NCBI GenBank assembly: GCA_963814125.1
Contig: CAWFBR010000007.1
Span: 18,506 to 82,505, forward strand
Source: an uncultured Chloroflexia bacterium
Lineage (GTDB): Bacteria > Chloroflexota > Limnocylindria > Limnocylindrales > CSP1-4
Reading direction: 5' to 3'
DNA: 64,000 nt
Both the position numbers and the translations under genes were made by a program. Positions 12,936-32,035 of the stretch are shown here, piece after piece. The notes under the pieces are model-generated. The model did not search any database, was not told the DNA's origin, and saw only the letters and a list, made by a program, of their open reading frames with translations. Position 1 is the stretch's first letter. The number at the start of each line of letters is the position of its first letter.

Positions 12936-13451
12936 CTAGCGCCCGGTCAATTGCTCTGACGCCGCGCCTCGGGAGTCCGCGGTACGCTCCGCTAGCGTGG
13001 CGACGGGCTGGTCTTCCGGCAGAGCGCCCACGGTAAGCAGGATGTTCGCCCACCAGCGCTGATCGCCGCTGACGATGACGAGGGCCAGGTCGGTAGAGCT
13101 GGTGGCGGCGTAGAAGTCGAAGCGCGGAAGGTGTGTTACAGGGGTCTCGGGTCCGAGCATTCCCGCCACCTCGCTCTGGACGGGCGGCAGGCTGCCGTCC
13201 TCGGGCTCCATGAACGCGACGCTCTCGATCGGCAGCACGGGCATCAGCGCGGCCAGGATCTCGGTAACGCTGACGATGCCCGGGCACAAGTTCAGGTAGA
13301 CGCGGCGGGCGCGAGGGTTCGGTGCGGTCAGGCTCGGGTAGTTGCCGTCGCTGATCAGGACCAGCGAGCCGTGGCCGGCCGACCCGATGCTCTCGAGGAT
13401 CTGGGGGTGGATTAGGCTTGTTCGAAGCATCGAGCGTCCCTCCTGCGACAT
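12936..13451 (-). CDS. RbsD/FucU family sugar mutarotase (D-ribose pyranase / L-fucose mutarotase)
   Basis: MLRTSLIHPQILESIGSAGHGSLVLISDGNYP, typical of RbsD/FucU. Last gene of a 4-gene operon. Confidence 0.8.
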   Translation of the reverse strand: MSQEGRSMLRTSLIHPQILESIGSAGHGSLVLISDGNYPSLTAPNPRARRVYLNLCPGIVSVTEILAALMPVLPIESVAFMEPEDGSLPPVQSEVAGMLGPETPVTHLPRFDFYAATSSTDLALVIVSGDQRWWANILLTVGALPEDQPVATLAERTADSRGAASEQLTGR

Positions 13452-13472
13452 CCACGGGGCATAAACAGGCGT

Positions 13473-14333
13473 CTAGAAACCCCTCAATTGTGTACTGGTC
13501 CGGCGCGGCAGCCCGGGGTGGGGCCGTCGCCTGAGAACGACGTAGTCCAGGCCGCGAGCACGGCAGAAGTCGCGCTTTTCCGGCTCATCGCCATCCTCGT
13601 TGACCACGTACGTCTGCGGCGCGATCGAAGCGATCTCGGGCTCCGCGTCCATCCATCCGCTCCCGGTGGAGATGAGCGCCCGGTGGACCTGGCGGACAGC
13701 CTGGACCATATAACGCCGCTCGTCCTGGCCGTGAAACGGGTGCCCGTCGCCCTTGAGCAGGCGTACGTTTCGGTCGCTTCCAACGACCACGTACAGTTCC
13801 CCCATCGAGGCGGCCTCCCGGAAGAACTCCACATGGCCCGAGTGCAGCCAATCGAAACACCCCGTGACGATCACGCGTGGTTCTCGCGGCGAACTGACGC
13901 CGACCTCAATATGGGCGCCGGCCTCCACGGAGGCCGGGAAGATGCGCAGCTGATCGGAGCCGAGCTCTAGGTATGGAATGGCTGCCCTCTCGCAGCCACG
14001 TCGAATGGCGTCTGTGCCGGCGTCCTCTGCTGCGACGACCGCGCCGGGGCGAGCGCCCTGAACGGGCTGCGTAGCTGCCTCCAGCGACGAGACGAGACTT
14101 ACGCTTTCTACGTACCGTATGTTCTCGAGGAAGAAGCGCCGCTCAGCCTCGGGGAAGTCCGGCTTCCGGCCGGCAGTGGACTCGATCAGGTCGTCGGTCC
14201 ACAGCCTGACGTGCACCTTCCCGGAACGTGCCGCTTCTTCGAGCAGGCGCACGTCGACTGACCGGAGATCCTGGAAGCCGGCGCAGACGACCACGGGACT
14301 CCGGGCATCCAGGCTGGCTGATGGAATTGGCAT
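13473..14333 (-). CDS. Tandem cytidylyltransferase-fold (CTP_transf_like / RfaE-domain-II-like) protein; putative sugar-1-phosphate nucleotidyltransferase
   Basis: Internal ATG 1 nt after the GHMP kinase stop. Two (T/H)xGH-type nucleotidyltransferase halves (VVVCAGFQDL... and VIVTGCFDWLHSGHVEFFREAASMGELYVVVGSDRNVRLLKG). Confidence 0.7.
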   Translation of the reverse strand: MPIPSASLDARSPVVVCAGFQDLRSVDVRLLEEAARSGKVHVRLWTDDLIESTAGRKPDFPEAERRFFLENIRYVESVSLVSSLEAATQPVQGARPGAVVAAEDAGTDAIRRGCERAAIPYLELGSDQLRIFPASVEAGAHIEVGVSSPREPRVIVTGCFDWLHSGHVEFFREAASMGELYVVVGSDRNVRLLKGDGHPFHGQDERRYMVQAVRQVHRALISTGSGWMDAEPEIASIAPQTYVVNEDGDEPEKRDFCRARGLDYVVLRRRPHPGLPRRTSTQLRGF

Positions 14334-14334
14334 C

Positions 14335-15195
14335 TCAGGCTCGAACACTGACCCTAAATGACCCGGGCACATCCTCCTCCGACGCGACGACGAGGTAGCC
14401 TCCACCGCAGCCGGAGAACATCGCGCCCGGATACGCCGACTGATATGCCGTGAGTATCTTCTTCAGGTCGAGCTTGATCGTCGGGTGGGCGAGCGTGTCG
14501 GGCAGGATCTGGTCCCAGGCCGTCGAGCATTCGACCATCGAGGCGCCGAGCGCCGCGACGTCGTTGCGCACGATCGCGTCGTAGCAGTCCCAACCGCTCC
14601 GCCCCAGCCGCCGGATCCACCCCGGATCGAGCCGCCTAGTGCCGAGCGGAGCGTAGCCCGGTGGGCGGGGCCCAACGGGGATCAGATGGAGCACTCGCTC
14701 CAGCCAGCCAATGGTCGCGTGGTCCGAGGTGGACTCGATGTGGCATGGGAAGTAGCCGTCGTCTACCGCGGCGTCGTAATCGAGCCGGCTAATGCCGGGC
14801 ACGATCAGCCCAATCATGTCCTGCGAGCCGGACGGCTCGGCGAGCGTCTTGTTCTCGGCCTCGTACAACTCGCGAATGAGGTCGGCGGGATCGCCGTCCG
14901 GAAGCGTGGCGCCCCAGAGAGCTTGGGCCGCTAGCCGTGTGCCCGTCGCCATGCCGCTGCGGTCCATGAACCGGACCGTCGGTTCCAGCGAAACCACAAC
15001 CATCGAGCCGGGCGGCTCGGGGTTGCGCGACGACACGAAGGGCTGGTCGATCCAGCCTCCTGCGAGGGCGAGACGATACGGCCATCCGCCGATGACGTCA
15101 CGGAGAGTTGGGAGGTCAGGTTTCGGCCGGCGCGGGAAGGGGGACGCGCCGGCCGAAACCTGTGAGGGGTTTTGCCGGGCCGAGGGCAAGTCCAT
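14335..15195 (-). CDS. GHMP-family sugar kinase (anomeric sugar-1-kinase-like)
   Basis: 286 aa. C-terminal GAMFSGCGGGYLVVASEE GHMP motif. Sits 3 nt after the epimerase stop. Confidence 0.7.
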   Translation of the reverse strand: MDLPSARQNPSQVSAGASPFPRRPKPDLPTLRDVIGGWPYRLALAGGWIDQPFVSSRNPEPPGSMVVVSLEPTVRFMDRSGMATGTRLAAQALWGATLPDGDPADLIRELYEAENKTLAEPSGSQDMIGLIVPGISRLDYDAAVDDGYFPCHIESTSDHATIGWLERVLHLIPVGPRPPGYAPLGTRRLDPGWIRRLGRSGWDCYDAIVRNDVAALGASMVECSTAWDQILPDTLAHPTIKLDLKKILTAYQSAYPGAMFSGCGGGYLVVASEEDVPGSFRVSVRA

Positions 15196-15198
15196 CGA

Positions 15199-16257
15199 TC
15201 AGCCCACTGCCACGGTCTGCCCAGCCTTCCGCGCCGCATATTCGCCGGCGATCCACTTGTACGTGGCCGCCATGCCTTCGCGAAGCGGAGTGCGCGGTTC
15301 CCAGCCGAGGACACTCTCGATGAACGTGTTGTCGCTGTTGCGGCCTGCGACGCCCTTCGGTGCGTCGAGCTGGTAGTGACGCTCGAGTTCGATGCCGGCG
15401 ATCTCCTCGACGATCGAGACGAGTTCGTTGATCGACACCAGCTCGCTCGAGCCGAGGTTGATCGGCGTGGCGATCAGGTCCTTGGAGTGCATGATCTTGT
15501 CGATGCCGACGATGCAGTCGTCGATATAGCAGAAGCTCCGCGTTTGCGTCCCATCGCCCCAGATATCGATCTTGTGGACGCCCGAATCAAGCGCCTCGAT
15601 GACCTTCCGGCACATCGCCGCCGGAGCCTTCTCGCGGCCACCGTCCCAGGTCCCGTACGATCCATAGATGTTGTGGAACCGGGCGATGTGGGTCTCGAGA
15701 CCGCGCTCCGCCCAGTACTCCTGGCAGAACATCTCGGAGATCAGCTTCTCCCAGCCGTAGCCGCGTTCCGCCATCGCCGGGTACGCATCCGACTCCTTGA
15801 GGGCGACGACCTCCGGGCTCTTCTGCAGGTCGGTGTTGTACGCACAGGCCGAGGACGAGAAGAAGTAGCGCCTGGCGCCGGCGCGGTAGGAAGCCTCGAT
15901 CATGTTCGTATTGATGAGGACGCTCCGAAGGCATTCGACGCGGAAGCGCTCGATGAAGCCCATCCCGCCCATGTCGGCGGCGAGGTTGTACACCTCAGTC
16001 GCGCCCTCCACGGCGTGGATCGCGTTCCGCTCCTTGCTGAGGTCCATCGAGATGCATTCGACGCCCGGGACTCGCTGGTACCACTCAGGCAACGGCTTGC
16101 GATCGATCGCACGGATCCGTCGATAGCCCAGGTTGTGGAAGTAGCGAGCAAGGGAGCCGGCGATGAATCCACCGGCGCCCGAGATCACGATCAGGTCGTC
16201 GGGACTCGTGTCGCGGGCAACGTCCGCTCCGAGGATCGCGCCAGCGCCATCGCCCAT
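15199..16257 (-). CDS. NAD-dependent nucleotide-sugar epimerase/dehydratase (SDR)
   Basis: Start chosen at MGDGAG. Rossmann motif VISGAGGFIAGSL and YxxxK-type SDR body. The track ORF extends to 16434 with a non-protein-like N-terminal extension. Confidence 0.8.
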   Translation of the reverse strand: MGDGAGAILGADVARDTSPDDLIVISGAGGFIAGSLARYFHNLGYRRIRAIDRKPLPEWYQRVPGVECISMDLSKERNAIHAVEGATEVYNLAADMGGMGFIERFRVECLRSVLINTNMIEASYRAGARRYFFSSSACAYNTDLQKSPEVVALKESDAYPAMAERGYGWEKLISEMFCQEYWAERGLETHIARFHNIYGSYGTWDGGREKAPAAMCRKVIEALDSGVHKIDIWGDGTQTRSFCYIDDCIVGIDKIMHSKDLIATPINLGSSELVSINELVSIVEEIAGIELERHYQLDAPKGVAGRNSDNTFIESVLGWEPRTPLREGMAATYKWIAGEYAARKAGQTVAVG

Positions 16258-16417
16258 GTTCAGTACCGCCTTTCGTGTCGCCGTGACGCCGGCTCGCGGT
16301 CGTACCTCTCGTCCATATCCGAGGTAGGAGGTTTCGCCGGCGCGGTTCGTTATCTGCAGACGTTCCCGGCGACTTCGCGGAAGTGCGCACTCCGGGCGAC
16401 GTGCTGGTATCGTTATC

Positions 16418-16433
16418 TGTGGTAACGGTACCA
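16418..16433. promoter_or_regulatory. Putative LacI-type operator TGTGGTAACGGTACCA, with adjacent GGTATCGTTATC module
   Basis: Near-palindrome (half-sites TGGTAAC / GGTACCA). The same 16-mer recurs at 21310 and a variant at 21715. Confidence 0.45.
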
Positions 16434-16723
16434 CCTGACGGCAAGATAGCAGAGCGAGCCACGTCAGGCAAGCGGTAGTTCCGGAGGCCTGTCACGGCGA
16501 CGAGGGCCGGTGCGCCGTCCGACGCCGCCACCACCCGCACGTCCGAACCGCCACCACCCGCAGTGTCGTTTCGGCATTCTCCAGTCGGGGAAGATAGGTA
16601 CCATCTCAACGGACACGCGACGAAGCCTCCCCTGTGCGCCAGGGTAACCTCCATCTGGCGAGCAGCCGCCAGGCACGGCGGAGCCTTACGTCGGGCTATC
16701 GATTTGGACTGGATACTGACCTG

Positions 16724-17740
16724 ATGGCAACCATCACTGAAGTCGCACAGCGCGCGGGCGTGTCGGCCATGACCGTCTCTCGCGTCGTCAACCGATCCGG
16801 CTACGCCAGCCCCGCGACGCGGGCGAAAGTCGAGCAGGCAATTGAGCAGCTTGGGTACGTTCCGAACGCCGTTGCCCGCCAGCTGCGTTCAAAGCGGAGC
16901 CACACGATCGCCCTGGTCGTGTCGGACATCACGAACCCCTTCTTCACGACCATCGCCCGCGGCGTCGAGGATGCGGCGGCCGCGCGCGGCTACGCTGTGA
17001 TGTTCGCCAATACGGATGAGTCGGAACGCGAGGAGATCGACTACCTTCGGATGCTCGCGCAGCGCCAGATCGACGGGGTCCTTCTTGTCCCTGCCGGGAA
17101 TTCCGCGGCGCCGTTCCGACTGCTGCAGCGCCAGGGGATCCCGGTTGTTGTGATCGACCGCCGCGTGGTCGCTCGCAAGGTCGACGAGGTCCGGTGCGAC
17201 TCCGAAGCGGGTGCCTACGAGTTGGTGCGCCACCTCATCGAGCTCGGACACACCCGCATCGCGGTCATCACCGGTCGACGGAACATCTCGACGTCCACCG
17301 ACCGGGTTGTAGGGTATGAACGAGCGCTCCAAGAAGCCGGGTTGCCGGTGTTGCCTGATCTCGTGACATACGACAGCTTCAGTCTCGAGGGCGGCTACCG
17401 GCAGGTGAACCAGATCCTGGCGAACAGGCCCAGGCCGACGGCGATATTCGCGACCAACAACTTCCTCGCCTTCGGGGCGCTGCGCGCCCTGCGCGAAGCG
17501 GGCTTGCGAATACCCGATGACGTCTCGCTCGTGACCTTCGACGATCTGCCGGCCGAGTGGCACGACGATCCCTTCATCACGGTCCTGGCCCAGCCCGCCT
17601 ACGAGCTCGGGCGTCATGCAACCGAATTGCTGTTGGATCGGCTCGCTGGTGGGCCCCGGACCAAACGGCAGGTCATCGTGCTGCCCGGCGAGCTCATCAC
17701 CCGCAGATCCAGCGGCCCGCCGCCCACCTCCCCAGTCTGA
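16724..17740 (+). CDS. LacI family transcriptional regulator
   Basis: MATITEVAQRAGVSAMTVSRVVN HTH and a periplasmic-binding-protein-like effector domain. Confidence 0.9.
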   Translation: MATITEVAQRAGVSAMTVSRVVNRSGYASPATRAKVEQAIEQLGYVPNAVARQLRSKRSHTIALVVSDITNPFFTTIARGVEDAAAARGYAVMFANTDESEREEIDYLRMLAQRQIDGVLLVPAGNSAAPFRLLQRQGIPVVVIDRRVVARKVDEVRCDSEAGAYELVRHLIELGHTRIAVITGRRNISTSTDRVVGYERALQEAGLPVLPDLVTYDSFSLEGGYRQVNQILANRPRPTAIFATNNFLAFGALRALREAGLRIPDDVSLVTFDDLPAEWHDDPFITVLAQPAYELGRHATELLLDRLAGGPRTKRQVIVLPGELITRRSSGPPPTSPV

Positions 17741-17762
17741 CCGTCCGACCCGCCGGGCACTT

Positions 17763-18998
17763 TCAGAATCGACGGACGCTCGGGTCGGAACCGCGACCAT
17801 GGTCCGAAGCCACAACCTCCGGTGGTTCGACGCTGGAGAGCCGACCGAAATGCGGTTCCGATGCGAACCGTCGCCCGGAACCCGGGATGAGCAGCGCCGC
17901 CAGGAGCAACACCGAGACCGCGCCGAGCACTGCCGATATCGTGTAGAGGGCCCGGATCGAGAGAATGCCCGCCAGCTCCCCGCCGAGCCCGGCTCCGATG
18001 ATCGCAGCCAGACTGGACACCGTGGCGTACAGAAGGCCCTGAGCCGTGGCCGCAGTTCCCTGGGGCGCCTCCCGCGAGACGTAGGCGGCGCTGCCGACAA
18101 GCAGGAGGCCATAACCCAGGCCTTGCAGCAGGGAGAAGCCAACGAGCAGGTCCGGCGACGTGAATGCGGCGTTCGCGATCTGGCGGCCGACGATGATGGC
18201 CATTCCGATCACGATCAGGCGTTCAGTTCCATACCGGCGAGCCAGCAGTGGAAACAGAACCATTGCCGGCACCTCGAGCAGTGTCTGGCAGCTCCAGAGA
18301 TAGCCGACCTCGTTGCTGGAGGCCCCCTGGTTCCGCAGGTAGATCGAGATGAACGGGCTTTGCATCGACATCGCTATGAAGCCCACCAGCGCGGCCGCCA
18401 GGAAATACAGGATCGGTCGATGGGAAAGCACCACGCGCGTGGCGTTGCCCGCGCCAATGGGTCTGATGGCGCTGGATCTGGTCGGCAAGAGCAACGTCGA
18501 CAGACCCGCGAGGGCCATCGCCGGGATCATGATCCAGAACAGACCGGCGTAGTTTTGACCGATCCACCAGCCCACGAGCGGCGTAGACACCATGAAGCCG
18601 AGCGAGCCGAAGACCCGGACGCTCGCGAAACGCGACCGATCCGAGGCCGTCATGTGCAGGATCCGGACGTCGATCATCGGTTGAAGCCCCGATAGTCCGC
18701 CGGCGAACAAGCAGATGGCGGGGAGCAGCCACAGGCTGGCGCCCGATGCCCCCATTGCCAGCCCGCCGGTCGCGGTTACCAGTCCGGCCAGGACGATGAG
18801 CGTCCTCGATCCGGGGTTGCGGTCGTGGAGCAAGCCCCAGAGTGGCGCTGCGAGGAGGGCGACCAGCGACATGGATCCCGTCAGGAGGCCGATGTCGGCG
18901 AGGGTGATGCCGATGCTGTTGTAGTAGAGCTGCAGATATGGCGCGTAGGCCCCCACCCCAAACGCCATGACGAAGTAGGAGAATCGAGCTCGATTCAA
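17763..18998 (-). CDS. MFS transporter
   Basis: 411 aa with 12 predicted TM helices. MFS motif GxLxDRxG (GLLHDRNPGSR). Confidence 0.85.
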   Translation of the reverse strand: MNRARFSYFVMAFGVGAYAPYLQLYYNSIGITLADIGLLTGSMSLVALLAAPLWGLLHDRNPGSRTLIVLAGLVTATGGLAMGASGASLWLLPAICLFAGGLSGLQPMIDVRILHMTASDRSRFASVRVFGSLGFMVSTPLVGWWIGQNYAGLFWIMIPAMALAGLSTLLLPTRSSAIRPIGAGNATRVVLSHRPILYFLAAALVGFIAMSMQSPFISIYLRNQGASSNEVGYLWSCQTLLEVPAMVLFPLLARRYGTERLIVIGMAIIVGRQIANAAFTSPDLLVGFSLLQGLGYGLLLVGSAAYVSREAPQGTAATAQGLLYATVSSLAAIIGAGLGGELAGILSIRALYTISAVLGAVSVLLLAALLIPGSGRRFASEPHFGRLSSVEPPEVVASDHGRGSDPSVRRF

Positions 18999-19013
18999 CC
19001 AGTCACTCCAAGG

Positions 19014-21038
19014 TCACCTTGGCCGCTTCGGGAGCCAAACCCTCATGCCGAGCCCTCGGCGGTTCCCCCACGCGAAATACGGCAGGGCGCGGATTCGATC
19101 CGGATGCCGCCGGGGCGCGCCCGACGGCTCGAACTCCCCGTACGGCCAAGAATTTCCGGCCTCCGATCGGATGAGACCGTCGAACGAGAGCCAGACCATC
19201 TCGCCCAGGTCTTGTGCCTGCCTGGTTTCGATTTCGACGTTGGGGGCGTCCTCGATCTCCAGGGACTCGACCGAGGCTCCCGAGGGTAGATCGGCATCCT
19301 CGACCGCGTAGACCAGCGGCCCTCGCTCCAGAGCCACGCAACCCCGCACGGCGTCGATCCTTGGATCGGGCGCAGTTGTCCGGGGAGTCATGTCGAGCTC
19401 GAGGCGGACCAGAGCTCCCGGCTCCCAGACGCGCGTGATCTCGATCCGATCAGCTTCTCCGCTCATCACGGTTTGACCGGCGACGCTCGCCACCGCTTTC
19501 GAGCACCACGATGGCACCCGCATCGAAAGTGTCCATGGTCGATCGATGGAACTCGTCACCGTGACCTCGAAGGTGCCTTCCCAGGGATACTCCGTCCGGG
19601 CTTCAATCGCGATCCGGCCGCCGCCTGTCTCCCCTGCGAAGGTGCCTGGCAAGTACTGGTGGATCTGCATCCCAGCCTCGTCAACGGTCACGGCGAGGTC
19701 TGGCAGACTCGCCAGGAAGCGCATCAGGTTCGGGGGGCAGCAGGCGATCCTCGGCCACGAGATCCGCCTGGTGGTCGCGATGCCCTCGAGGACTTCCGGG
19801 ACCGCCGAGTGCTGCATCAGCGGGTTCGAGTAGAAGAAGTGAGCGCCGTCGGGCGCCAGTGCAGGCAGAACCGCGTTGTACGTCTGCCGCTCGATCATGT
19901 CGGCAAAACGCTCCTCGCCCGTGACCAAGAGCAACCGCCACGCCAGCATGGCGCCCCCGATCGCGGCACAGGTCTCCGTATACGCTCGATCGGGCGGAAG
20001 CTCGAAGGCGGCGCCGAACGCCTCATCCTGGTGGTGAACGCCGAGACCGCCGGTCAGGTAGGTGAAGGAGGAAACCATGGCATCCCAGCGGTGGAGCACG
20101 GAATCCAGCAGCTCGCGGTCCCCGGTCTCAACGGCCACGTCCACAACGCCGCAATCGAGGTACATCTGTCGCACGGCGTGACCGGCCGGCTCGAGCGCGC
20201 TCCGGACCGGCTCGTGGTCCTGCCAGAACCTGGCGCCGTAGCGGCAGGTACCCAGGAGACCGTGCCCGCGCCGATCGACGAGCGTCCGCGCGAAATCCAG
20301 GTAGCGTCGTTCGCCCGTCGTCCTGTATAGCTCGACCAGGGCCATCTCGAACTCGGGGTGGCCGCAGATCAGCTCTCGGCGTCCGGGGCCCATCTCAGCT
20401 TCTATGCGCGCGACGAAGCGTTCCGCGATCCGGATGAGGCGTTCGTCGCCGAGGCTTCGTTTCCAGGCTACGGCCGCCTGGACGAGATGGCCTGCCACAT
20501 AGAGTTCGTGGCCCCACTCCATGTCCTGGAATTCGCCACCCGGTTGGGCGACCTGGTAGAAGGTGTCGAGGTAGCCGTCGGGTCGCTGGGCGCGCGCGGC
20601 GCGCTCGATCATTGGCTCTGCCAGTGCGCGCAGCTCGGGACGTTCGCCCTGGGCGAGCTCCCACCCGACGGCCTCGAGCCACTTGTAAACGTCCGAGTCC
20701 AGGAACGGAGCCGGGTTACCACCGTCCCCCTCAGCGCCTCGGTAAGGGCCCTCGGCGCCGGCAGCAAGCTCGAAGTTGGTCCCGTTGCCGCAGGCCTCAA
20801 GCCTGGACGACCCGTGCGGGATCGTCCGCTCGCGGTTCGTCCGAAGCCTTTCGTACCAGAAGCCGGCGTCGACACGGGCGTTGGTCAGGCCGACGGGACG
20901 CAGCCGCAGTCGCGCAACTCCTGTCGGCAACACTGGAGCGACCGTGAGCCTGCGACCCGGACCCTCGGGCGAGCGGTCATCTTGGAGCGTGTATGCCTCT
21001 CCGGTCGTCGGCGTCCTTGTCGTCTTCGATCCGGTCAT
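19014..21038 (-). CDS. Glycoside hydrolase family 127 protein (beta-L-arabinofuranosidase-like, DUF1680)
   Basis: Start at the ATG preceded by GAGGAGG (674 aa). GH127 signatures include LDSDVYKWLEA, HxxYxxxH-like and the Cys-rich region CAAIGG...CCPPNL. Confidence 0.85.
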   Translation of the reverse strand: MTGSKTTRTPTTGEAYTLQDDRSPEGPGRRLTVAPVLPTGVARLRLRPVGLTNARVDAGFWYERLRTNRERTIPHGSSRLEACGNGTNFELAAGAEGPYRGAEGDGGNPAPFLDSDVYKWLEAVGWELAQGERPELRALAEPMIERAARAQRPDGYLDTFYQVAQPGGEFQDMEWGHELYVAGHLVQAAVAWKRSLGDERLIRIAERFVARIEAEMGPGRRELICGHPEFEMALVELYRTTGERRYLDFARTLVDRRGHGLLGTCRYGARFWQDHEPVRSALEPAGHAVRQMYLDCGVVDVAVETGDRELLDSVLHRWDAMVSSFTYLTGGLGVHHQDEAFGAAFELPPDRAYTETCAAIGGAMLAWRLLLVTGEERFADMIERQTYNAVLPALAPDGAHFFYSNPLMQHSAVPEVLEGIATTRRISWPRIACCPPNLMRFLASLPDLAVTVDEAGMQIHQYLPGTFAGETGGGRIAIEARTEYPWEGTFEVTVTSSIDRPWTLSMRVPSWCSKAVASVAGQTVMSGEADRIEITRVWEPGALVRLELDMTPRTTAPDPRIDAVRGCVALERGPLVYAVEDADLPSGASVESLEIEDAPNVEIETRQAQDLGEMVWLSFDGLIRSEAGNSWPYGEFEPSGAPRRHPDRIRALPYFAWGNRRGLGMRVWLPKRPR

Positions 21039-21309
21039 GACTGCAATCGCCTCCTCCTCATCACCGCATCGACGAGCGGCCTTCGGACGGCACGCAACTC
21101 CGGAGCGGCCAGGACCTGTCCGAATCGGCGCGAGTCCGCGACCTGCCCGATGGTTGCGGCCGCATTCTATCCAGGATTCCCTGCTCGGCAGCGGTTCTGT
21201 CGGTCGGCGCCGGCTTCGTGGGAGACAGGACACCGCCGGCGACGATGAGCTCCGTCCGGGCGGGGCCAGTTGCTGCGACGGGCGTGCCATGCACGGCAGG
21301 CGGTCTGCC

Positions 21310-21325
21310 TGTGGTAACGGTACCA
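21310..21325. promoter_or_regulatory. Putative LacI-type operator TGTGGTAACGGTACCA (identical to 16418-16433)
   Basis: Exact 16-mer repeat in the GH127 / ABC divergent intergenic region. Confidence 0.45.
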
Positions 21326-21503
21326 GTGAGTTCGGGGAAATGCCAGAGCGCGCCGCCTCGATGCGACGTGCTGGTCGAGAAGCGACGGCGCCGGACCTCC
21401 GGGAGGGAGGGCCGGCGACCTCCAGGCCACGCCGGAATCTGGTCCGATCGAGATCCGGAGGACCGGCAACGGCACATGTCCCCCAGGCGCGCTTTACTCG
21501 CCC

Positions 21504-21533
21504 TCGCGGCTGCTAACGGTAACAGAGGTAACG
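21504..21533. promoter_or_regulatory. GGTAACAGAGGTAACGATATC module related to the site upstream of the epimerase operon
   Basis: Shares GTAACGATA(T/C)C with the reverse complement of 16406-16417. Confidence 0.3.
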
Positions 21534-21714
21534 ATATCATTTTTCCCTTGACAACGCGCGGATCGGGTCCCTACTCTGCAGGCGAAACGCCAGAAACGTT
21601 TCGCAAGCCCGGGTGATGCCTGGGCCGAACATGGCAGTCAACCTTGGTCGTGGCCCCCGCCACCGTGGGCGGGTGGCTGCGGGAACGGCCACTTTCGGGC
21701 TTCAGTCTTTGCCT

Positions 21715-21730
21715 GTGGTTACGGTAACGC
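21715..21730. promoter_or_regulatory. Variant operator TGTGGTTACGGTAACG, about 140 bp upstream of the ABC substrate-binding gene
   Basis: Preceded by the same TGCC context as the 21310 site. Confidence 0.4.
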
Positions 21731-21868: not shown

Positions 21869-23270
21869 ATGAAGAGAGCCCTACTTATCCTTGCGGCGGT
21901 GGTCCTGGGCGGATGTTCCAGCACCACCGCGTCAGCCGCGCCGACAGCCACGCCGGTGCCGGCCGCGACACCTGCATCAAATTCGACCTCCGCCGCTGTG
22001 GAGTCCGCTGCGGCGGCCGCCGCCAGCGCCGGCATCGAATCCGCCGAGGTCACCAACACGACCGATGCCATCACTGTCTGGATCGACCAGCCTCGCCAGC
22101 CCGTGGTTGACGGCTTCAAGGCCAAGTACCCGCAGTACGCGAGCCTGATCAACGATTCCGTTGTCGACCGCGAGACGCTGCCGGCCAAGACCCTGCTCTT
22201 CAACAACACCGGCTCCGGCTGGCCTGATGTCGTCTTCGCCGAGCCGCGACTCGTCGCCCGCGTCTCGGATGCGGCGCACGCCTTCCCGCTCGACTTGTCC
22301 ACCCTCGTTCCGGCCGACATGCTCAAGCAATACGCCGGCGCGGACAACTGCACTTTCAACGGCAAGGTCTATTGCCTCCGCAACGACCTCGCCCAGATGG
22401 TGACGTACTACAACGCACCGCTTTTCACGCAGTTCGGCTACACGGTTCCCACGACGTTCGAGGAGATGGAGGCCCTCAGCGACAAGGTCGCCAAGGACCA
22501 TCCCGGCTACTACCTCGGCACACTGGGTGACGGCTGGACCTGGCTCTCGTACATGGAGGCCAGCGGCTGCCCGTACGCCAACGTCAAGGACGTCGGAACC
22601 CTCCAGATCAACGTCAGCGATCCCGAATTGCATCCGAGGCGCGGAGCTGATGGATCACATGGTCGCTAACAAGACCCTCTGGAATACCGACTACTTCACC
22701 GCCAGCTGGGTTACGATCGCCAACAACAACAAGCTCCTGATGCTCATTGCGCCCATTTGGGCCGCACTCGGCACCTTCAAGGGCACCTACTACACCGACA
22801 AGACGACCCCCAGTCAGACCGACCACCCGCTCGGCGTCGCGCCTCCGCTCAAGTGGGCTGCGGATGCCACCGCTCAGACCGCGGCCATGGGCGGCGCGGC
22901 CTGGACCATCTCTCAGCACACCAAGAACCCGGGACTCTCGCTGCTCTTCGCCGAGTATGCGACCCAGGACCCGGACCTCTGGAAGGGCTCCTCTAACTTC
23001 CCATCCTTCACGCCGCTCCAGCCGTTGTTCAACGCGACGGTCCAGGACGACCCGATCTTCGCGAGCGACCCGACGGCCGCCTTCGCGACGGGCGCGACGG
23101 AGATCTCCGCCATCGGCGACAACTGGCCGCGCTTCGACCTGATCGCACCGCTCAACACCGTCGTCAAGGACATGTACAGCAAGAAGCAGACGATGGTGGC
23201 GACGTTGCCTGAGGTCACCTCGGTGCTCACGCCACTAGCGGAGGCTCAGGGTTACAACGTAACCCAGTAG
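21869..23270 (+). pseudogene. Sugar ABC transporter substrate-binding lipoprotein (family 1), apparently interrupted by a frameshift near 22620-22650
   Basis: The two track ORFs (21869-22669 and 22527-23270) together make one roughly 465 aa solute-binding protein. Lipobox signal MKRALLILAAVVLGGC. The frame switches within GATCCCGAATTGCATCCGAGGCGCGGAGCTG. Confidence 0.7.
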
Positions 23271-23377
23271 GACTGGCTCCTCAGGTAACTACGGGTTTCA
23301 TCGACCCAAGCGTGTAATTTCGAGGAAGGCGGCCCACATGGTCGCCTTCCTCGTCTCCGTCAGCAGAGGATCTTCCA

Positions 23378-24334
23378 TTGGCTACGCCCATTGCTCCTGC
23401 CGCGTTGCCGTTGACTCGAGGCTCCCGGCTCTCGCGCCTGTGGACCGGTTGGCGGCGGCATCGGATCTCCTACCTGCTCGTCCTGCCCTATGCGATCTTC
23501 ATGGCGATCTTCGGCATCGGGCCGGCTCTCTACGCCCTCTTGATGAGCTTCTCGAAGTTCAGCTTTGGCACGCCGGACTACTTTGCCGCCGGGCTTGACA
23601 ACTACAAACTCGCTTACGGCGACGCCCGGTTCTTCCAGGTGTTCGGAAACCTCCTCGAGTTCCTGATCGTCTCCGTACCACTGGGTATCGCGTTCGTGGT
23701 CCTGCTGGCACTTCTGCTGGACATGCGACCCGGACGGTTCTCGTCCACGTTGCGTTTGCTCTACTTCATTCCTGGAGCAGTCACCGGGCCGGCGCTGGTC
23801 CTCCTGGTGATCTGCATCGCCGACCCGGGCATCAGCCCATTCGGTCCGATCTTCCAGTCCCTCGGCGCAACGAACTTCGACGCCCTGGTCTTTCCGGGAA
23901 GCCTGCCATTCGTCTTCACGATCATGGGCTTCTTCGCCGGCGCCGGAATGTGGATCGCGATCCAGCACGGCGGGCTCCAGGGCATCTCCCCTGAAGTCCT
24001 CGAGGCGGCCGAACTCGACGGCTGCAATGCCTGGCAGAAGGCGCTCTATATCAAGCTACCGTTCATGCGTCCGTACATCGTCTACCAGACGATCCTGATC
24101 TTCGCCCTGAACGTGCAGCTCTTCGTCGAGCCGCAGCTGCTGACTTCCACCTGGGTTCAGGCCAACGTGCCGCCCCAGTGGGCCCCGAATCAGCTCGCCT
24201 ACTCGTACGCGTTTGACGTCGGAAACTTCGGCGCCGCAGCGGCGCTCTCGCTCCTGATGCTCGGCATCGGCCTTGCGGGCGCATATGTGCTGATCCGATG
24301 GACCGGCTTCTTCAAGCTCGAGGGACAGTCATGA
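23378..24334 (+). CDS. Sugar ABC transporter permease (MalF/UgpA-like)
   Basis: 6 TM helices and the EAA-type loop (LKLEGQS end). Confidence 0.85.
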   Translation: MATPIAPAALPLTRGSRLSRLWTGWRRHRISYLLVLPYAIFMAIFGIGPALYALLMSFSKFSFGTPDYFAAGLDNYKLAYGDARFFQVFGNLLEFLIVSVPLGIAFVVLLALLLDMRPGRFSSTLRLLYFIPGAVTGPALVLLVICIADPGISPFGPIFQSLGATNFDALVFPGSLPFVFTIMGFFAGAGMWIAIQHGGLQGISPEVLEAAELDGCNAWQKALYIKLPFMRPYIVYQTILIFALNVQLFVEPQLLTSTWVQANVPPQWAPNQLAYSYAFDVGNFGAAAALSLLMLGIGLAGAYVLIRWTGFFKLEGQS

Positions 24335-25275
24335 CCGGTCAGACGGCGACTAACGCAAAGGCCCGGGCCAGATTCTCGCCTGGACGATACTTTGGAGAGC
24401 TGGGGTTCGTCGGCTATGTGATCCGCCTGGCAATCCTGCTGGTCTTCGCCATCTACTTCGTGGTTCCGCTGGTGTGGCTGCTGTTCGCGACCACGAGAGA
24501 CCCAGCCAGCCTGTACGGCAACTGGTTCCCGCTCACATTCGGTTCGATCGATCGACTCGTGACGTCCTGGAACAACATCATTGGCTACCAGAACGGCGAG
24601 ATGCTCCTCTGGATGGGCAACTCCATCCGCTATGCCGGGCTATCGCTACTCGGCAGCCTCGCAATCTGCATCCCGGCCGGCTACGTCCTGGCAATCGGCC
24701 GCTTCCCGGGCCGCAGGCTGCTCCTCTGGCTGACCCTGATCACGATGCTGCTGCCCGTGTCGGCGATGGTGCTGCCGCTGTTCCTCGAGCTGAACCTGGC
24801 ACACCTCATCAACACGCAGTGGGCAGTCATTCTGCCGGCGATGTTCTTTCCCTTTGGCGTCTATCTGAGTTACGTGTACTACGGCTCCAGCCTCCCCGGA
24901 GAACTCGTCGACGCCGCCCGCGTCGACGGCGCCTCGGAACTGAGGGTCTTCTGGAACCTCGCGCTCCCGCTGGCCAGGCCGCTCCTCGGACTTCTGGCCT
25001 TCATCAGCTTCAACGCCAACTGGAACAACTTCTTCGGTCCCTACGTCATGCTGAACGACGACAAGCTGTACAACATGCCGGTTGGCTTGAACTCGGTCGT
25101 GGCCGCGACGTCGGCGCTCCGTCCAGGCTTCAATCCCACGCCCGGAGCAGTCTCCTTCGTACAAGCCGACGCTGCGATGGCCGCCATGTTCATGATCGTC
25201 CCGGTCGTCATCGTCTTCATGTTCTCGATGAAGTACGTGACGAGCGGTGCGTTCACCGGTGGCGTCAAGGGGTGA
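24331..25275 (+). CDS. Sugar ABC transporter permease (MalG/UgpE-like)
   Basis: ATGA overlap with the upstream permease. Start MTGQTATN. Confidence 0.85.
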   Translation: MTGQTATNAKARARFSPGRYFGELGFVGYVIRLAILLVFAIYFVVPLVWLLFATTRDPASLYGNWFPLTFGSIDRLVTSWNNIIGYQNGEMLLWMGNSIRYAGLSLLGSLAICIPAGYVLAIGRFPGRRLLLWLTLITMLLPVSAMVLPLFLELNLAHLINTQWAVILPAMFFPFGVYLSYVYYGSSLPGELVDAARVDGASELRVFWNLALPLARPLLGLLAFISFNANWNNFFGPYVMLNDDKLYNMPVGLNSVVAATSALRPGFNPTPGAVSFVQADAAMAAMFMIVPVVIVFMFSMKYVTSGAFTGGVKG

Positions 25276-25434
25276 CGGGTTTCTTCTGAGCTGAGTCGGG
25301 CAGGGCCGGTCACAGTGCAGTGTGGCCGGCCGGCCCGGCCGTTGGTCGTGATGTAGCCTCAGGGCCACGCTTGTCCCGTACACGACCCGACGCAGCTTCC
25401 TCCCGACGGTAGCCGACTTCCCGGAGCCTTATCG

Positions 25435-27810
25435 ATGCACTTGCCGAAGACACCAATCAACTACTTTCGCGGCGACCCCTGGGCCATCGTCGAGGAGGGT
25501 TTTGACCCCGCCTACCAGCGCATCTCCGAGTCGGTGTTCTCGGTCGCCAACGAGTTCATGGGCGTGCGCGGCTACTTTGAGGAGGGCTACAGCGGCGACC
25601 ATCTGCTCGGCAGCTACTTCAATCACCTGTACGAACTCATGGACATTCGCCACGACCAGTTGTTCAAGGGGTTCGTGACCAAGGGCGCGGCCATGGTCAA
25701 CGCCGTGGACTGGCTGTACACGCGCATCTGGGTAGACGGCGAGCAGCTCGACCTGGCGAAATCGGCTTTCTCCGGCTTTACGCGACGACTTGACATGCGC
25801 ACTGGCGTGCTCACGCGCGACTTCGTGTGGGCGACGGCCACCGGAAAGCATCTCCGGGTGACCTTGGCTCGGTTCACAGACATGCAGTCCACTCGCGTGG
25901 GCTGTCAACGCATTCTCCTCGAGCCCCTGGATTTCTCGGGAACAGTCGAGATCAGAGCCGGACTGGACTTCAACACGCACTACGAGATAGGTGCCGGCTG
26001 GGACCAGACCGGCGAAGAGAAGCGGCCCGGCCGGGATGAGATCATCAACTTCTGGCAGTGCCATCGGAAGAGCGCGGTGGAGGGCGGTTGGGCGATCGAG
26101 GCCGAAACGCTGCGAAGCGGTCACCAGCTGTTCTCAGGGTTTCGACTGCAGGCCGACCAGGCCATCGAAACCTCCCCTGTCGAGGACGTCAAGTTCATCG
26201 GCGTCGACTTCAAACTGAACGTCAAGCAGGGTCTGCAGACGAGGGTCGACAGGATTGCCGTCAACGATTGGGCCAAGACGCCGGACGTCGACGCGGTGTG
26301 GGGAAGAGGGCTCGAGCTGATGCGGCGTTTCGCCGGGGCGACCTACCGTAGCCTCCTGGCGGAGCATGTTGCCTTCTGGCAGCGAACCTGGAACGTGCTC
26401 GACGCAGACATCGAGGGCGACCCCGACGTGCTCCAGGGCCTGCGTTTCTCGAGTTTCCAGACGTACCAGTCGTACCACGGCGAGGACGCCGACCTCAACG
26501 CCCTGTGCAAGGGCATGACCGGCGAGGTCTACTTTGGGTGGGCGTTCTGGGACAGCGAAATCTACTCGCACCGCTTGATGATGTTTGTCAATCCGGAGGT
26601 CGCCAGGAATCTGCTCCTGTACCGTTACCATCGCCTACCTCAGGCGATGGAAAGGGCCCGGCAGCTCGATTGCGAAGGCGCCCGATTTCCGTTTGCCACG
26701 ATCACGGGGACCGAAGACTCCGGCACCTGGCAGCATGTAGACATCGAGATCCATTCCGATCTGGCGGTTGCCTACGCGATCTGGCATCACGACGTCATCC
26801 TGCAAGACAAGGAGTTCCTGTACCGGGAAGGCATCGAGATGCTGCTCCAGATATGCCGCTTCCTGGCGAGCTGGGGCGGATGGAGCCCATCGAAGGGCGA
26901 CTTCGGGTTCTACGGCGTCATGGGTCCCGACGAGTTCCACATGATGGTGAACCACAACTGCTACACGAACGTCCTCGGCAAGAAGGCTTTCGAGTTCACT
27001 CTCGCTGTCCTCGACGAGATGAAGGCCGCGGCGCCTGAACTCTATCGGGCGGCAGTGGCCCGGACGGAGCTTGCGCCGGAGGAGCCCAAGCGCTGGGCTG
27101 AGATGGCTCGGAAGATGCGCATCCCGAAGGACGAGCAGACGGGCGTTCTCGAGCAGCACGCAGGCTACTTCGATCTTCCCCACGTCGATCTCGAGCACTT
27201 CCCGCCGGACCAGATCCCGGTCTACAAGAACTGGGCCTACGTCAAGATCTTCCGCTACGACATGGTCAAACAGCCGGATGTGCTGAATCTCATGTACTTC
27301 TTCAGCCAGGATTACACGCTGGCGGAGAAGCAGGCCAACTACGATTTCTACGAGGCTCGGACGATACACGAGTCGTCCCTGTCGCCCTCACTGCACGCGA
27401 TTCTCGCGGTTGAGTTGGGGAAGCTCGACGACGCCTACACGTTCTTCGCCTACGGCGCTCGAATGGACCTGGACAACTACAACAGGAACACGGAGCAGGG
27501 ACTTCACGTCACATCTGCCGCCGGCGTGTGGGCCAGCATGATCTTCGGCTTCGGCGGAATGCGTACGGACGGCGACGTCCTCGCCCTGGCGCCCGCAATG
27601 CCGACCCAATGGCGGTCATACCGATTCCGGGTGCGCTATCGCGGCGCCCTGCTCGAAGTGCGTGTCAACGCCGACGAGGTTCACGTTCAGGCGATGGACG
27701 GCGGGCCGATCACGGTGAGATTGTATGGAAGTGATTGCGCGGTGGATTCTCTGGGAGTCGCCGTCGCGCTCAGGCAGCCCGGCGAGCAGCCGTTCCACAA
27801 AGTCGGATGA
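25435..27810 (+). CDS. Glycoside hydrolase family 65-like protein (hydrolase/phosphorylase)
   Basis: 791 aa. N-terminal ESVFSVANEFMGVRGYFEEGYSG is the hallmark of the GH65 N-domain, followed by an (alpha/alpha)6 catalytic region. Confidence 0.75.
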   Translation: MHLPKTPINYFRGDPWAIVEEGFDPAYQRISESVFSVANEFMGVRGYFEEGYSGDHLLGSYFNHLYELMDIRHDQLFKGFVTKGAAMVNAVDWLYTRIWVDGEQLDLAKSAFSGFTRRLDMRTGVLTRDFVWATATGKHLRVTLARFTDMQSTRVGCQRILLEPLDFSGTVEIRAGLDFNTHYEIGAGWDQTGEEKRPGRDEIINFWQCHRKSAVEGGWAIEAETLRSGHQLFSGFRLQADQAIETSPVEDVKFIGVDFKLNVKQGLQTRVDRIAVNDWAKTPDVDAVWGRGLELMRRFAGATYRSLLAEHVAFWQRTWNVLDADIEGDPDVLQGLRFSSFQTYQSYHGEDADLNALCKGMTGEVYFGWAFWDSEIYSHRLMMFVNPEVARNLLLYRYHRLPQAMERARQLDCEGARFPFATITGTEDSGTWQHVDIEIHSDLAVAYAIWHHDVILQDKEFLYREGIEMLLQICRFLASWGGWSPSKGDFGFYGVMGPDEFHMMVNHNCYTNVLGKKAFEFTLAVLDEMKAAAPELYRAAVARTELAPEEPKRWAEMARKMRIPKDEQTGVLEQHAGYFDLPHVDLEHFPPDQIPVYKNWAYVKIFRYDMVKQPDVLNLMYFFSQDYTLAEKQANYDFYEARTIHESSLSPSLHAILAVELGKLDDAYTFFAYGARMDLDNYNRNTEQGLHVTSAAGVWASMIFGFGGMRTDGDVLALAPAMPTQWRSYRFRVRYRGALLEVRVNADEVHVQAMDGGPITVRLYGSDCAVDSLGVAVALRQPGEQPFHKVG

Positions 27811-27887
27811 CCGGTCCTCTAGGTCGGGACTTGGCGGGCTGAGGATCGCCGGCTCCCAGGGTGTTCGGGACAAGGAGGAATGCCCAT

Positions 27888-31206: not shown

Positions 31207-32017
31207 ATCTCCGCCAAGCCTCGAGTCGGTGGTCCGATCGATCGGCCGTGCGGGTCGGCGGCTCGTCGAGCTTGGGGCTTGCGAAGGCGCCGCCGGCAAC
31301 ATCTCCGTCGCCTTCCGTGACTTGCCCGAGGTCGGCTCGCTCTTCCCGAATGTCGAGACCCTCACCTTGCCGACTGCGGTTCCGGAGCTGGCAGGGGCGA
31401 CCTTCGTGGCAACCGGCTCGGGATGCCGGCTGCGTGATGTGCTCGACGACCCACAGGCGAACCTTGGCTGCCTTGTGGTGGATTCCGGTGGAACCACCGG
31501 GAAGCTGTTCAGTTCGCCGCGGCGGCTGTTCGTCCGCCTCACGAGCGAGCTCAACTCGCATATCGCGGTCCATCGACGCCAGCTATTGGCGTCCGGCCGG
31601 GAGTTCCACGCGCTTGTCCATGCACATGCCCCGAACCTCACGTTCCTGAGCCACGTGCCCGGATATCAGGATCAGGCTCATCTCAACCGGCGGCTGATGC
31701 GCTGGGAGCCCGAGACGATCATCTTCCTGAGTGAGGGGATCGGCGTCGCGCCGTTCAACGTTCCCGGATCGCCCGGCCTAATGGAGTCGACGGAGCGCCT
31801 GCTCGACCGTCACCAGCTCGTCGTCTGGGGAAAGCACGGTGTAATCGCACGCTCCTTCGAGTCGGTTGAAGGGGCGCTCGACCGGATCGAGTACGCCGAA
31901 ACCGCCGCCCGCTACGAGTACATGGATATCGTGGCCGGTACACAAGCGCCAGGCATGAGCGAGGATGAGATCCGGGCAGTCTGCGCGTTTCATCAAGTCG
32001 ACCAGTCGATCGTGTAG
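31193..32017 (+). CDS. rhaD: Class II aldolase, rhamnulose-1-phosphate aldolase-like (candidate L-fuculose-1-P aldolase here)
   Basis: 274 aa. FVATGSGCRLRDVLDDPQANLGCL, HFLSH-like His cluster (HALVHAHAPN) and VVWGKHGV parallel the E. coli RhaD motifs. Confidence 0.85.
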   Translation: MPVSESPPSLESVVRSIGRAGRRLVELGACEGAAGNISVAFRDLPEVGSLFPNVETLTLPTAVPELAGATFVATGSGCRLRDVLDDPQANLGCLVVDSGGTTGKLFSSPRRLFVRLTSELNSHIAVHRRQLLASGREFHALVHAHAPNLTFLSHVPGYQDQAHLNRRLMRWEPETIIFLSEGIGVAPFNVPGSPGLMESTERLLDRHQLVVWGKHGVIARSFESVEGALDRIEYAETAARYEYMDIVAGTQAPGMSEDEIRAVCAFHQVDQSIV

Positions 32018-32035
32018 GAGCGGTTTGGAGGCGCG

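Follow-up and report, generated by a model that had tools for sequence, protein, structure and literature searches.

LacI/GalR-family local repressors of sugar genes have been surveyed on a large scale, and an even palindromic operator with a central CG was found for 1173 of 1303 regulators (Ravcheev 2014, PMC4052901). Tandem sites and autoregulation are typical of the family, the distances between sites peak at 13, 22 and 32 bp, and the usual position of a site is between -140 and -30 (PMC4052901). LacI-family FucR regulons have been predicted in Bifidobacterium (PMC4746261), and the FucR of Caldicellulosiruptor bescii has tandem sites and a 329-nt 5' UTR at fucI-alfA (PMC8579813).

The window, which is the whole stretch of 64,000 nucleotides that was analysed, comes from an uncultured member of the Chloroflexota and holds a repeated 16-mer, which is real and is very probably the operator of an adjacent LacI-family repressor that controls an L-fucose-utilisation gene cluster. 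The best explanation of this element, called O_A here, and one that we hold with considerable confidence, is that it is recognised by the adjacent regulator, a predicted FucR-like repressor that acts locally on L-fucose utilisation in Chloroflexota.

The 16-mer TGTGGTAACGGTACCA occurs exactly at 16418-16433 and 21310-21325 and contains as its core the 14-bp palindrome TGGTAnCGnTACCA, centred on a CG. The preliminary description had reported these two copies, placed them upstream of operons and likened them to LacI-family operators, and these statements hold: both copies are exact, O_A has the even, CG-centred palindromic form, and both copies are intergenic after correction of the gene starts, since GH127 starts at 21038 (not 21290), as confirmed by the 674-aa database protein P0121, and the epimerase probably at 16257 (not 16434). 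Five strong copies, all with the central CG, are found in the window at 16405, 16420, 21312, 21511 and 21526; all lie within the two intergenic regions that flank its sole LacI gene, and four of them form two tandem pairs with a spacing of 15 bp. In the epimerase/lacI intergenic region, the distal copy of the pair (16405..16418, TGGTATCGTTATCT, 16.2 bits) has two mismatches to TGGTAnCGnTACCA and is a conserved island in alignment A2, and the perfect palindrome core (16420..16433, TGGTAACGGTACCA, 20.9 bits) lies inside the 16-mer at 16418-16433. Another perfect core (21312..21325, TGGTAACGGTACCA, 21.0 bits) is located 274-287 bp upstream of the GH127 ATG, and the other tandem pair (21511..21539) is built by TGCTAACGGTAACA at 21511-21524 (16.8 bits) and AGGTAACGATATCA at 21526-21539 (18.9 bits).

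A second module had been described at both loci in opposite orientation; it is present, with a difference at the first base (GTAACGATATC at 21528-21538, and GATAACGATACC on the reverse strand of 16406-16417), but it is the partner operator of each tandem pair and not a separate element. The reported variant TGTGGTTACGGTAACG also exists, one base lower than first reported, at 21714-21729, with an intact left half-site, a degenerate right half and 16 of 17 nt in common with 21306-21322. Its role as a third operator on the ABC side was rejected: it reaches 9.2 bits, under the mean shuffled-window maximum (~12), and is not kept in L081-L084.

The anatomy of the motif, its statistics, its conservation and its linkage to genes are the established part of the case for O_A. 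With up to three mismatches TGTGGTAACGGTACCA has five matches in the window against 0.11 expected, a number that none of 100 shuffles reached, and the i.i.d. expectation of the exact 14-bp core is 0.002 per 64 kb. Among the six matches with up to two mismatches in the whole window, five belong to the two intergenic regions, which together span 1,296 bp (Fisher p 2e-8). The motif is not common in coding DNA, a test that had been suggested earlier. The sixth, at 26617 in the GH65 coding sequence, was discarded as coincidental; its PWM score is at chance level and it recurs in orthologues, but the coding sequence is 92% identical there. The consensus of O_A is TG[G/T]TA[A/T]CG[A/T]TA[C/A]CA, and its PWM was trained on distant loci only (L001-L080). 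The training sites were chosen with this very pattern, a partly circular procedure on which neither the positional enrichment nor the alignments depend. In the PWM scan of the window the five intergenic sites rank at the top with 16-21 bits, followed by a match of 11.8 bits, and shuffled windows had a mean maximum of 12.1 bits, with one of 30 reaching 19.9 bits. A literature search for TGGTAnCGnTACCA as text returned nothing relevant.

Over some 100 related Chloroflexota loci O_A goes along with the regulator clade, independently of how the genes are ordered. In 80 genome loci there are 127 O_A matches, 48 of which are located within 250 bp on the upstream side of the LacI orthologue (rate ratio 41, p 7e-54). 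The element is also found upstream of the epimerase operon in L001, L004, L013, L015, L017, L018, L020, L025, L032, L035 and L045, and precedes fucose-transporter operons in relatives. In alignments A2, A3 and A4 the operators are conserved islands with diverged flanks, adjoined by conserved promoters, and the operator at 16420..16433 is kept in L081-L084, L087-L089, L093 and L001. Distinct adjacent O_A pairs have a spacing of 13-16 bp in 19 of 23 cases. O_A thus has the form described for LacI-family operators, a CG-centred palindrome of even length, 14-22 bp (PMC4052901), as well as their placement, in promoter regions of regulator-adjacent genes and with a phylogenetic footprint at orthologous positions. 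The earlier proposal of one regulator acting over both sugar loci is supported by the footprints in close relatives and by dozens of other genomes of Chloroflexota in which O_A likewise precedes orthologous regulators and operons. When metagenome contigs were scanned for the exact tandem-operator string there were 0 matches, and a protein-based scan took the place of this one.

The LacI-family regulator (338 aa) is encoded at 16724..17740 on the forward strand, between the two loci, as had been described, and is the only one in the window. It matches the Pfam LacI HTH and Peripla_BP_1/3 models, with PF00356 at residues 3-48 (E 2e-19) and PF00532 and PF13377 at residues 60-330, which corresponds to an N-terminal LacI-type helix-turn-helix followed by a type I periplasmic-binding-protein-like effector domain of the LacI/GalR family. 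Its PDB homologues CcpA, RbsR and PurR align over the full length with only ~200 bits, and RbsR and PurR are among its best NCBIfam/PDB matches. In 35 clade members T17, S19, R20, V21 and L54 are invariant and V18 is nearly so, and the two recognition-helix positions before T17 vary (A15-M16 in the window, T-M in the consensus). A dimer of the regulator would bind each 14-16-bp O_A palindrome, mostly in tandem with 13-16 bp between the sites of a pair, via its helix-turn-helix, and Leu54 of the hinge, by analogy with the CpG-inserting leucine of PurR, would probably enter the central CpG. Between the epimerase and lacI genes, the O_A sites precede the lacI ATG by 291-319 bp, and for this reason autoregulation of lacI is uncertain in this genome. 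Where a genome carries two paralogous regulators, O_A-like sites appear to serve both of them, and therefore the motif alone cannot assign a site to one paralogue.

Promoter positions, repression as opposed to activation, the identity of the effector and the binding of O_A itself are what we infer from the sequence. A generic sigma-70 promoter scan of 16150-16800 on both strands gave no promoter-like site, and a generic promoter and terminator scan gave nothing in either intergenic region; conservation is the sole basis of the epimerase and ABC promoter models.

The predicted target operon at 12936..16257 on the reverse strand, which is linked to this LacI clade throughout the clade, encodes an Fcl-like SDR epimerase/reductase (15199-16257), a GHMP-like protein of 286 aa (14335-15195), a nucleotidyltransferase with an N-terminal domain of unknown type (13473-14405) and a FucU mutarotase (12936-13451). 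Searches of Pfam, NCBIfam and PDB sequences gave no match for the GHMP-like protein, which carries the invariant motifs PSGSQDMxG and SGCGGGY. The top 50 Foldseek matches of its AF2 model (mean pLDDT only 61) all belong to the GHMP superfamily, with a best E of 3.5e-3 and a TM of ~0.3, and these motifs and the weak fold match tentatively suggest the label of GHMP kinase. The putative epimerase promoter (16443..16471, reverse strand) has the -35 hexamer TTGCCT (16471..16466), a 17-nt spacer and the extended -10 TGcTATCTT (16451..16443), and in eight relatives these hexamers lie at a fixed spacing, with variable spacer sequence, upstream of the operator pair. With a start predicted near 16436 on the reverse strand, the O_A pair would then be at about +3 to +31, just 3' of the extended -10, which is a classic repression position, and the bound repressor may block initiation or promoter escape.

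GH127 (19014-21038) and an MFS transporter (17763-18998) form another predicted target operon (17763..21038, reverse strand), which has one perfect O_A site upstream that may serve for its control; the GH127 promoter could not be located. The MFS-GH127 block is missing at this position in the closest relatives (L081-L089) and is therefore considered an insertion in this lineage, and the flank of O_A at 21312 is similar to the epimerase promoter cassette. A repeat-element or MITE origin of the copies was rejected, as they share the operator and, weak cassette similarity aside, no extended repeat. The insertion also speaks for the identical 16-mers being leftovers of a recent duplication of promoter DNA, without a regulatory role, as do the non-palindromic flank CTG and both 'free' positions (A, G) common to the two copies, the weaker similarity that runs 25 nt further and includes CAGAGCG, and the whole cassette visibly duplicated in L081 and L083. 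A duplication accounts for identity but not for conservation, as orthologous positions retain a diverged version of the palindrome amid randomised flanks, and a different O_A variant, TGGTAACGTTATCA, lies ~180 bp upstream of the closest GH127-MFS orthologue, in L134 (83% identity). Such leftovers are thus scarcely credible as the explanation, and a conserved operator of the LacI-family regulator is preferred.

The probable long target operon at 21869..32530 on the forward strand encodes a lipoprotein substrate-binding protein (SBP), in two frames (21869-22669 and 22527-23270), two permeases, GH65, FucI, an FGGY kinase, a class II aldolase and a Nudix protein, and in the window no further O_A site or promoter cassette is found between its genes. 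Its putative promoter (21549..21578, forward strand), with a start predicted near 21585, is composed of TTGACA, 18 nt and TACTCT; both hexamers are invariant and the spacers variable in nine cassette copies, and the generic scan missed it because the -10 is weak. The 3' end of the O_A pair at 21511..21539 is 9 bp upstream of the -35, and the pair is a 100% conserved block in L081-L085; from about -75 to -47 it would abut the -35 hexamer, outside the core promoter, and the canonical repressor position is held by a second palindrome, O_B.

At this promoter the regulator could be an activator or a GalR-style looping repressor and not a simple steric repressor. The two sites, centred at about -67 and -52, are upstream of a perfect -35 and the weak -10, and more O_A-like DNA is available for possible looping at 21312 and 21716. 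The external operator of GalR, at -60.5, is likewise upstream of the -35 and is a precedent for this placement. However, at transporter and epimerase promoters of other clade members O_A lies across the -10 or +1, which indicates repression (an example is the fucose ABC-lacI-fucU-fucI operon of L020, where the overlap is with the -10), the site at 21716 lacks conservation, and the 338-aa regulator aligns end to end with dimeric PurR and CcpA, which suggests that it has no C-terminal tetramerisation segment. Activation or looping is therefore rather unlikely, and repression from O_A is the preferred reading.

O_B (21592..21603) reads aGAAACGTTTCg in the window, and its form in relatives is CGAAACGTTTCG. 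It would lie at about +8 to +19 of the putative transcript, or about +5 to +20 as more broadly placed, and is present in every cassette copy. It was not accepted as a degenerate O_A, since the two most conserved half-site positions differ (G2 to C and T4 to A), and its specificity differs from that of O_A. At the predicted ABC start, O_B would imply an additional input beside O_A. We take it to resemble RbsR/PurR-type operators, and these two proteins are among the regulator's best matches, so the adjacent LacI protein could recognise O_B, which has the classic repressor position, and a regulator encoded elsewhere could bind O_A. But O_B occurs just in the closest relatives, at the ABC and GH65 cassettes, and is missing from the regulator's own intergenic region, and it is O_A, unlike O_B, that tracks the regulator clade over the ~100 loci. 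Moreover, the window has no second LacI gene, so the O_A binder would be unlinked to sites that always flank this gene. This exchange of operators is very unlikely, and O_A remains assigned to the adjacent regulator.

Rfam models gave nothing in the whole window at gathering thresholds or in 16100-22000 at E up to 1; no known riboswitch or leader accounts for the conserved DNA. A structured leader RNA of the ABC operon (~285-290 nt, as predicted from the putative start) was also rejected, with a folding z-score of -0.54, no stabler than shuffles; only a short local hairpin is conserved in it. The O_A pair, the promoter, the LacI-type palindrome O_B and the hairpin could form one unit that integrates two repressors. 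In L081 and L083 this cassette stands as a whole copy before both the SBP operon and the GH65-fucI operon, and it would have been retained with the lipoprotein signal peptide while the transporter behind it was swapped. The conserved core of the regulon is formed by the GHMP-like protein, the nucleotidyltransferase, the Fcl-like SDR and FucU, and the Nudix gene ends the fuc operon. This unannotated module could be an undescribed fucose route. A portable dual-input promoter cassette together with an undescribed nucleotide-sugar route for L-fucose in Chloroflexota is, as a joint reading, a speculative one and probably not correct.

The window holds fucU, fucI, the FGGY kinase and class II aldolase genes, fucU, fucI and fucK (and fucA) invariably accompany the regulator clade, and a GH29 alpha-L-fucosidase is present in L081 and L083. 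From this constant linkage, the effector is likely L-fucose or a derivative or pathway intermediate, an assignment based on gene content, and binding of this presumed inducer would release the repressor. The gene content is that of the FucR class, whose regulons comprise L-fucose uptake and catabolic genes. An arabino-oligosaccharide effector, which the preliminary description had considered, is unlikely, as the regulon genes are fucU, fucI, fucK and fucA, with the alpha-L-fucosidase in relatives.

The regulon prediction is sound but ordinary and leaves the general understanding of LacI-type regulation unchanged. It supplies a practical operator model that aids the annotation of a large regulator clade of uncultured Chloroflexota, and it points to L-fucose as the likely substrate of a mixed cluster (GH127, GH65, MFS, ABC), which bears on the annotation of carbon use in soil and sediment Chloroflexota MAGs. 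The widespread GHMP-like family, with over 7,000 homologues, lacks a Pfam model and is now placed in a predicted fucose-regulated operon, a testable functional context.

Compared with the LacI/GalR local sugar repressors (PMC4052901), this locus has the same HTH_LacI and periplasmic-binding-protein-like sensor, the CG-centred even palindrome, sites at promoters of adjacent sugar-catabolic and transporter operons, close tandem sites and a divergent regulated operon; it differs in several sites 150-360 bp from the start codon and in its host, an uncultured Chloroflexota lineage. With E. coli GalR and with CcpA/cre it shares the protein fold and the CG-centred operator logic, but the half-site is TGGTA here and TGtAA or GCAAA there, and the similarity is only ~200 bits; the analysis gave no sign of HPr-type corepressors or HU-mediated loops. 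Like the FucR of Bifidobacterium and C. bescii, the regulator is local and linked to fucose-catabolic genes, and C. bescii FucR also has tandem sites and a long fucose-operon leader (~285 nt here, as predicted). In contrast to C. bescii FucR, the sites at the catabolic promoter are upstream of the -35 and not inside the UTR, and, unlike both FucR regulons, the one predicted here also includes the GHMP-like/nucleotidyltransferase/SDR module, GH127-MFS and GH65.

The 16-mer TGTGGTAACGGTACCA, reported in the preliminary description at two loci, occurs there in exact copies (16418-16433 and 21310-21325); with up to 3 mismatches it has 5 matches in the window, where 0.11 are expected, and 100 shuffles never give as many. 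Its core is the 14-bp palindrome TGGTAnCGnTACCA, which has a central CG and an expectation of 0.002 for an exact match in 64 kb. With up to 2 mismatches this core is found in six places in the window, five of them intergenic (the O_A sites, starting at 16405, 16420, 21312, 21511, and 21526) and one inside the GH65 gene (26617), and the intergenic share, 5/6 within 1,296 bp of two intergenic regions, corresponds to a Fisher p of 2e-8. The second shared module described earlier, GTAACGATA(T/C)C, is present at both loci, but it is not a separate element, since it falls within the O_A copies at 16405-16418 and 21526-21539 and is the second operator of a tandem pair. Each pair (16405/16420; 21511/21526) has a spacing of 15 bp.

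A PWM trained only on 80 Chloroflexota regulator loci (L001-L080) and then applied to the window gives 16-21 bits for the five intergenic O_A sites, while shuffled windows reach 12.1 bits on average. The variant previously taken as a further operator lies one base lower than first placed, at 21714-21729, scores 9.2 bits (site 21716), is unconserved, and is most plausibly a half site or a site that has decayed. The match inside the GH65 gene (CTGTACCGTTACCA, 26617-26630, 2 mismatches) scores 11.8 bits, which is chance level, and recurs at the orthologous codons of relatives (L081 13785, L087 9697, and L088 8311), where the proteins are 92% identical; because of this identity and the chance-level score it is probably a coding constraint, an auxiliary operator inside the gene being the less likely reading.

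The window has a G+C content of about 66% and its nearest database proteins are from metagenome-assembled Chloroflexota genomes. In the gene map, built from Pfam and NCBIfam matches, the minus strand carries FucU (12936-13451), a cytidylyltransferase-like nucleotidyltransferase (13473-14405), a 286-aa protein without a match to these models (14335-15195), and an SDR epimerase whose best match is GDP-L-fucose synthase (15199-16257). The only LacI-family gene of the window follows on the plus strand (16724-17740), then MFS (17763-18998) and GH127 (19014-21038) on the minus strand, and, on the plus strand, a lipoprotein SBP in two frames (21869-23270), two permeases, GH65, FucI, an FGGY kinase, a class II aldolase, and a Nudix protein, up to 32530. 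GH127 starts at 21038, shorter than the longest ORF, as in the 674-aa database protein P0121, and the epimerase start, at about 16257, also differs from that of the longest ORF; with these revised starts all strong O_A sites are intergenic.

The regulator-profile scan, with one genome per species, gives the 80 Chloroflexota loci, in which 48 of the 127 motif matches fall within 250 bp upstream of the regulator orthologue, a region that makes up 18 kb of 1.25 Mb (rate ratio 41, p 7e-54). Under a relaxed pattern, 38 of the 80 loci have a site ahead of the regulator gene, often as part of a pair. A tblastn map always links the regulator clade to fucU, fucI, fucK and/or the trio of SDR epimerase, 286-aa protein, and nucleotidyltransferase; motif matches lie upstream of the trio in L001, L004, L013, L015, L017, L018, L020, L025, L032, L035, and L045, and further ones head ABC-lacI-fucU-fucI operons. 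In L020 the O_A pair overlaps the -10 region of a TTGACA promoter, and closer relatives, whose regulators are 73-90% identical, keep the tandem pair between epimerase and lacI. The pair spacing is 13-16 bp in 19 of 23 distinct adjacent pairs, in agreement with one class of neighbouring LacI-family sites, those “about 13 bp” apart (Ravcheev et al. 2014, PMC4052901). Of the DNA-reading residues, T17, S19, R20, and V21, as well as Leu54 in the hinge, do not vary within the clade, consistent with a single shared motif and a CpG-centred site.

The regulator and its sites show every testable hallmark of the LacI family, and O_A is very probably, as judged from sequence, the operator of the adjacent FucR-like LacI-family repressor. 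The LacI regulon first predicted was essentially right, as the motif adjoins the sole LacI gene and recurs upstream of its orthologues. The effector would be L-fucose or a derivative, because fucU, fucI, fucK, fucA, and, in relatives, an alpha-L-fucosidase are present.

In the alignment of the epimerase/lacI intergenic region the O_A pair is an island of identity between diverged flanks. Eight relatives share one layout on the epimerase strand, in which a -35 element (TTGCCn or TAGACA) is followed, after a spacer of 17-18 nt, by an extended -10 (TGnTATCTT, TGnTAATCT, or TGnTAGCGT) and, 5-11 nt later, by the O_A pair. The window pair would thus lie at about +3 to +31 of the predicted epimerase operon transcript, just downstream of the start, which is the classic position for steric repression, and the bound regulator would repress this promoter by occlusion. 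A generic promoter scan of the intergenic region does not call this promoter. The same region has a near-palindrome around GTAC, AAGATAGGTACCATCTCAACGG (16591-16612), about 110 bp ahead of the start codon of lacI; this element is kept in L081-L084, is not an O_A site, cannot be recognised as a sigma-70 promoter, and may be the lacI promoter or the site of another protein. It also has a perfect 15-nt direct repeat, CCGCCACCACCCGCA, twice 23 bp apart at 16525-16562, not conserved in relatives.

MFS, GH127, and about 460 bp of upstream DNA are inserted between lacI and the ABC cassette (17763-21500), in the window genome only when compared with L081-L089. The GH127-side operator (21312-21325) shares with the epimerase cassette the flank CTG and a weaker CAGAGCG block, which suggests a copied promoter-operator unit and would account for the perfect 16-17-nt identity. 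These shared flanks also favour the reading of the 16-mer repeats as duplication remnants only, which is hardly credible beside operators kept at orthologous positions between diverged flanks and beside the site upstream of the closest GH127-MFS orthologue. At 150-180 bp upstream, the locus of this orthologue (83% identity) has TGGTAACGTTATCA and a second site that is weaker, and orthologues at 80% have TGGTAATGTTACC. With an operator of its own and these orthologous sites, GH127-MFS probably belongs in the LacI regulon, as had been proposed, but only as a lineage-specific member; an orthologue at 72% is accompanied by a separate LacI gene and another palindrome. In NCBIfam, the GH127 protein matches aceric acid hydrolase best, with a score of 374 bits that stays below the cutoff, rather than a characterised beta-L-arabinofuranosidase.

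On the ABC side, L081-L085 have an invariant block (CTGCTAACGGTAACAGAGGTAACGATATCATT..CTTGACA, 18 nt, TACTCT), with a spacer sequence that varies between copies, which places the O_A pair at about -75 to -47 of the ABC promoter. Directly 3’ of this promoter is O_B, a second CG-centred palindrome (CGAAACGTTTCG; aGAAACGTTTCg in the window, 21592-21603), and next comes a short hairpin that is conserved. At the two half-site positions most conserved in O_A, O_B has other bases. It is conserved in every cassette copy, right behind the predicted -10 of the ABC and GH65 promoters (L081 6737-6748 and about 12436, L083 3676 and 8987, L087 4026, L088 2632). With up to 1 mismatch it is found in the cassettes of the closest relatives and, in other loci, at five scattered positions (one each in L005, L080, and L115, and two in L123, one of them exact). 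Binding of the regulator to O_B instead of O_A is improbable, since O_B is absent from the regulator’s own intergenic region and from the rest of the window outside the ABC cassette, whereas O_A follows the regulator clade across the loci. The window encodes no candidate O_B binder. With O_A kept as the operator, the upstream position of its pair leaves three possibilities for the ABC promoter, namely a GalR-like mechanism, cooperation with an O_B binder, or activation, and something other than simple repression is possible there, if unlikely. A 9-bp insertion, GAAACGCCA, adjoins the window O_B. Rfam finds nothing in the window, and the ABC leader folds no better than shuffles.

The whole cassette (operator pair, TTGACA-18-TACTCT promoter, O_B, hairpin, and leader start) stands before both the SBP operon and GH65-fucI in L081 (6665-6760 and 12362-12460) and L083 (3604-3700 and 8915-9010). 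The window has neither the second cassette nor the GH29 alpha-L-fucosidase that separates both copies in relatives, so that GH65 through fucA are probably transcribed from the single ABC promoter. The SBP gene is split between two overlapping frames (21869-22669 and 22527-23270), through a frameshift or else an assembly error. Its signal peptide and lipobox, MKRALLILAAVVLGGCSS, nearly match those of the L081 SBP, the mature proteins share only 28% identity, and the permeases show no relationship at E below 1e-15; by these comparisons, the transporter appears to have been swapped behind a retained promoter and signal peptide.

The 286-aa protein (14335-15195, minus strand), which matches no Pfam, NCBIfam, or PDB sequence, has over 7,000 homologues, which carry only hypothetical annotations and no Pfam model, and it has the invariant motifs PSGSQDMxG and SGCGGGY. 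Its Foldseek matches are weak and all to GHMP kinases, the best being heptose kinase 3k85. With the nucleotidyltransferase, which is RfaE-domain-II-like plus a 175-aa N-terminal domain of unknown type, the GDP-fucose-synthase-like (Fcl-like) SDR, and FucU, it forms a conserved module, always beside the LacI clade, which may be an undescribed route of L-fucose nucleotide activation. A Nudix gene (32036-32530) closes the fuc operon.

The less ordinary features, as side observations, are the dual-palindrome cassette with its duplication, the transporter apparently exchanged behind a retained signal peptide, and the unannotated GHMP-like protein. For Bifidobacterium, earlier work predicted FucR regulons of the LacI family (PMC4746261), and Caldicellulosiruptor is reported to have tandem FucR sites and a long fucI leader (PMC8579813); the predicted regulon of the window would be another case alongside these.
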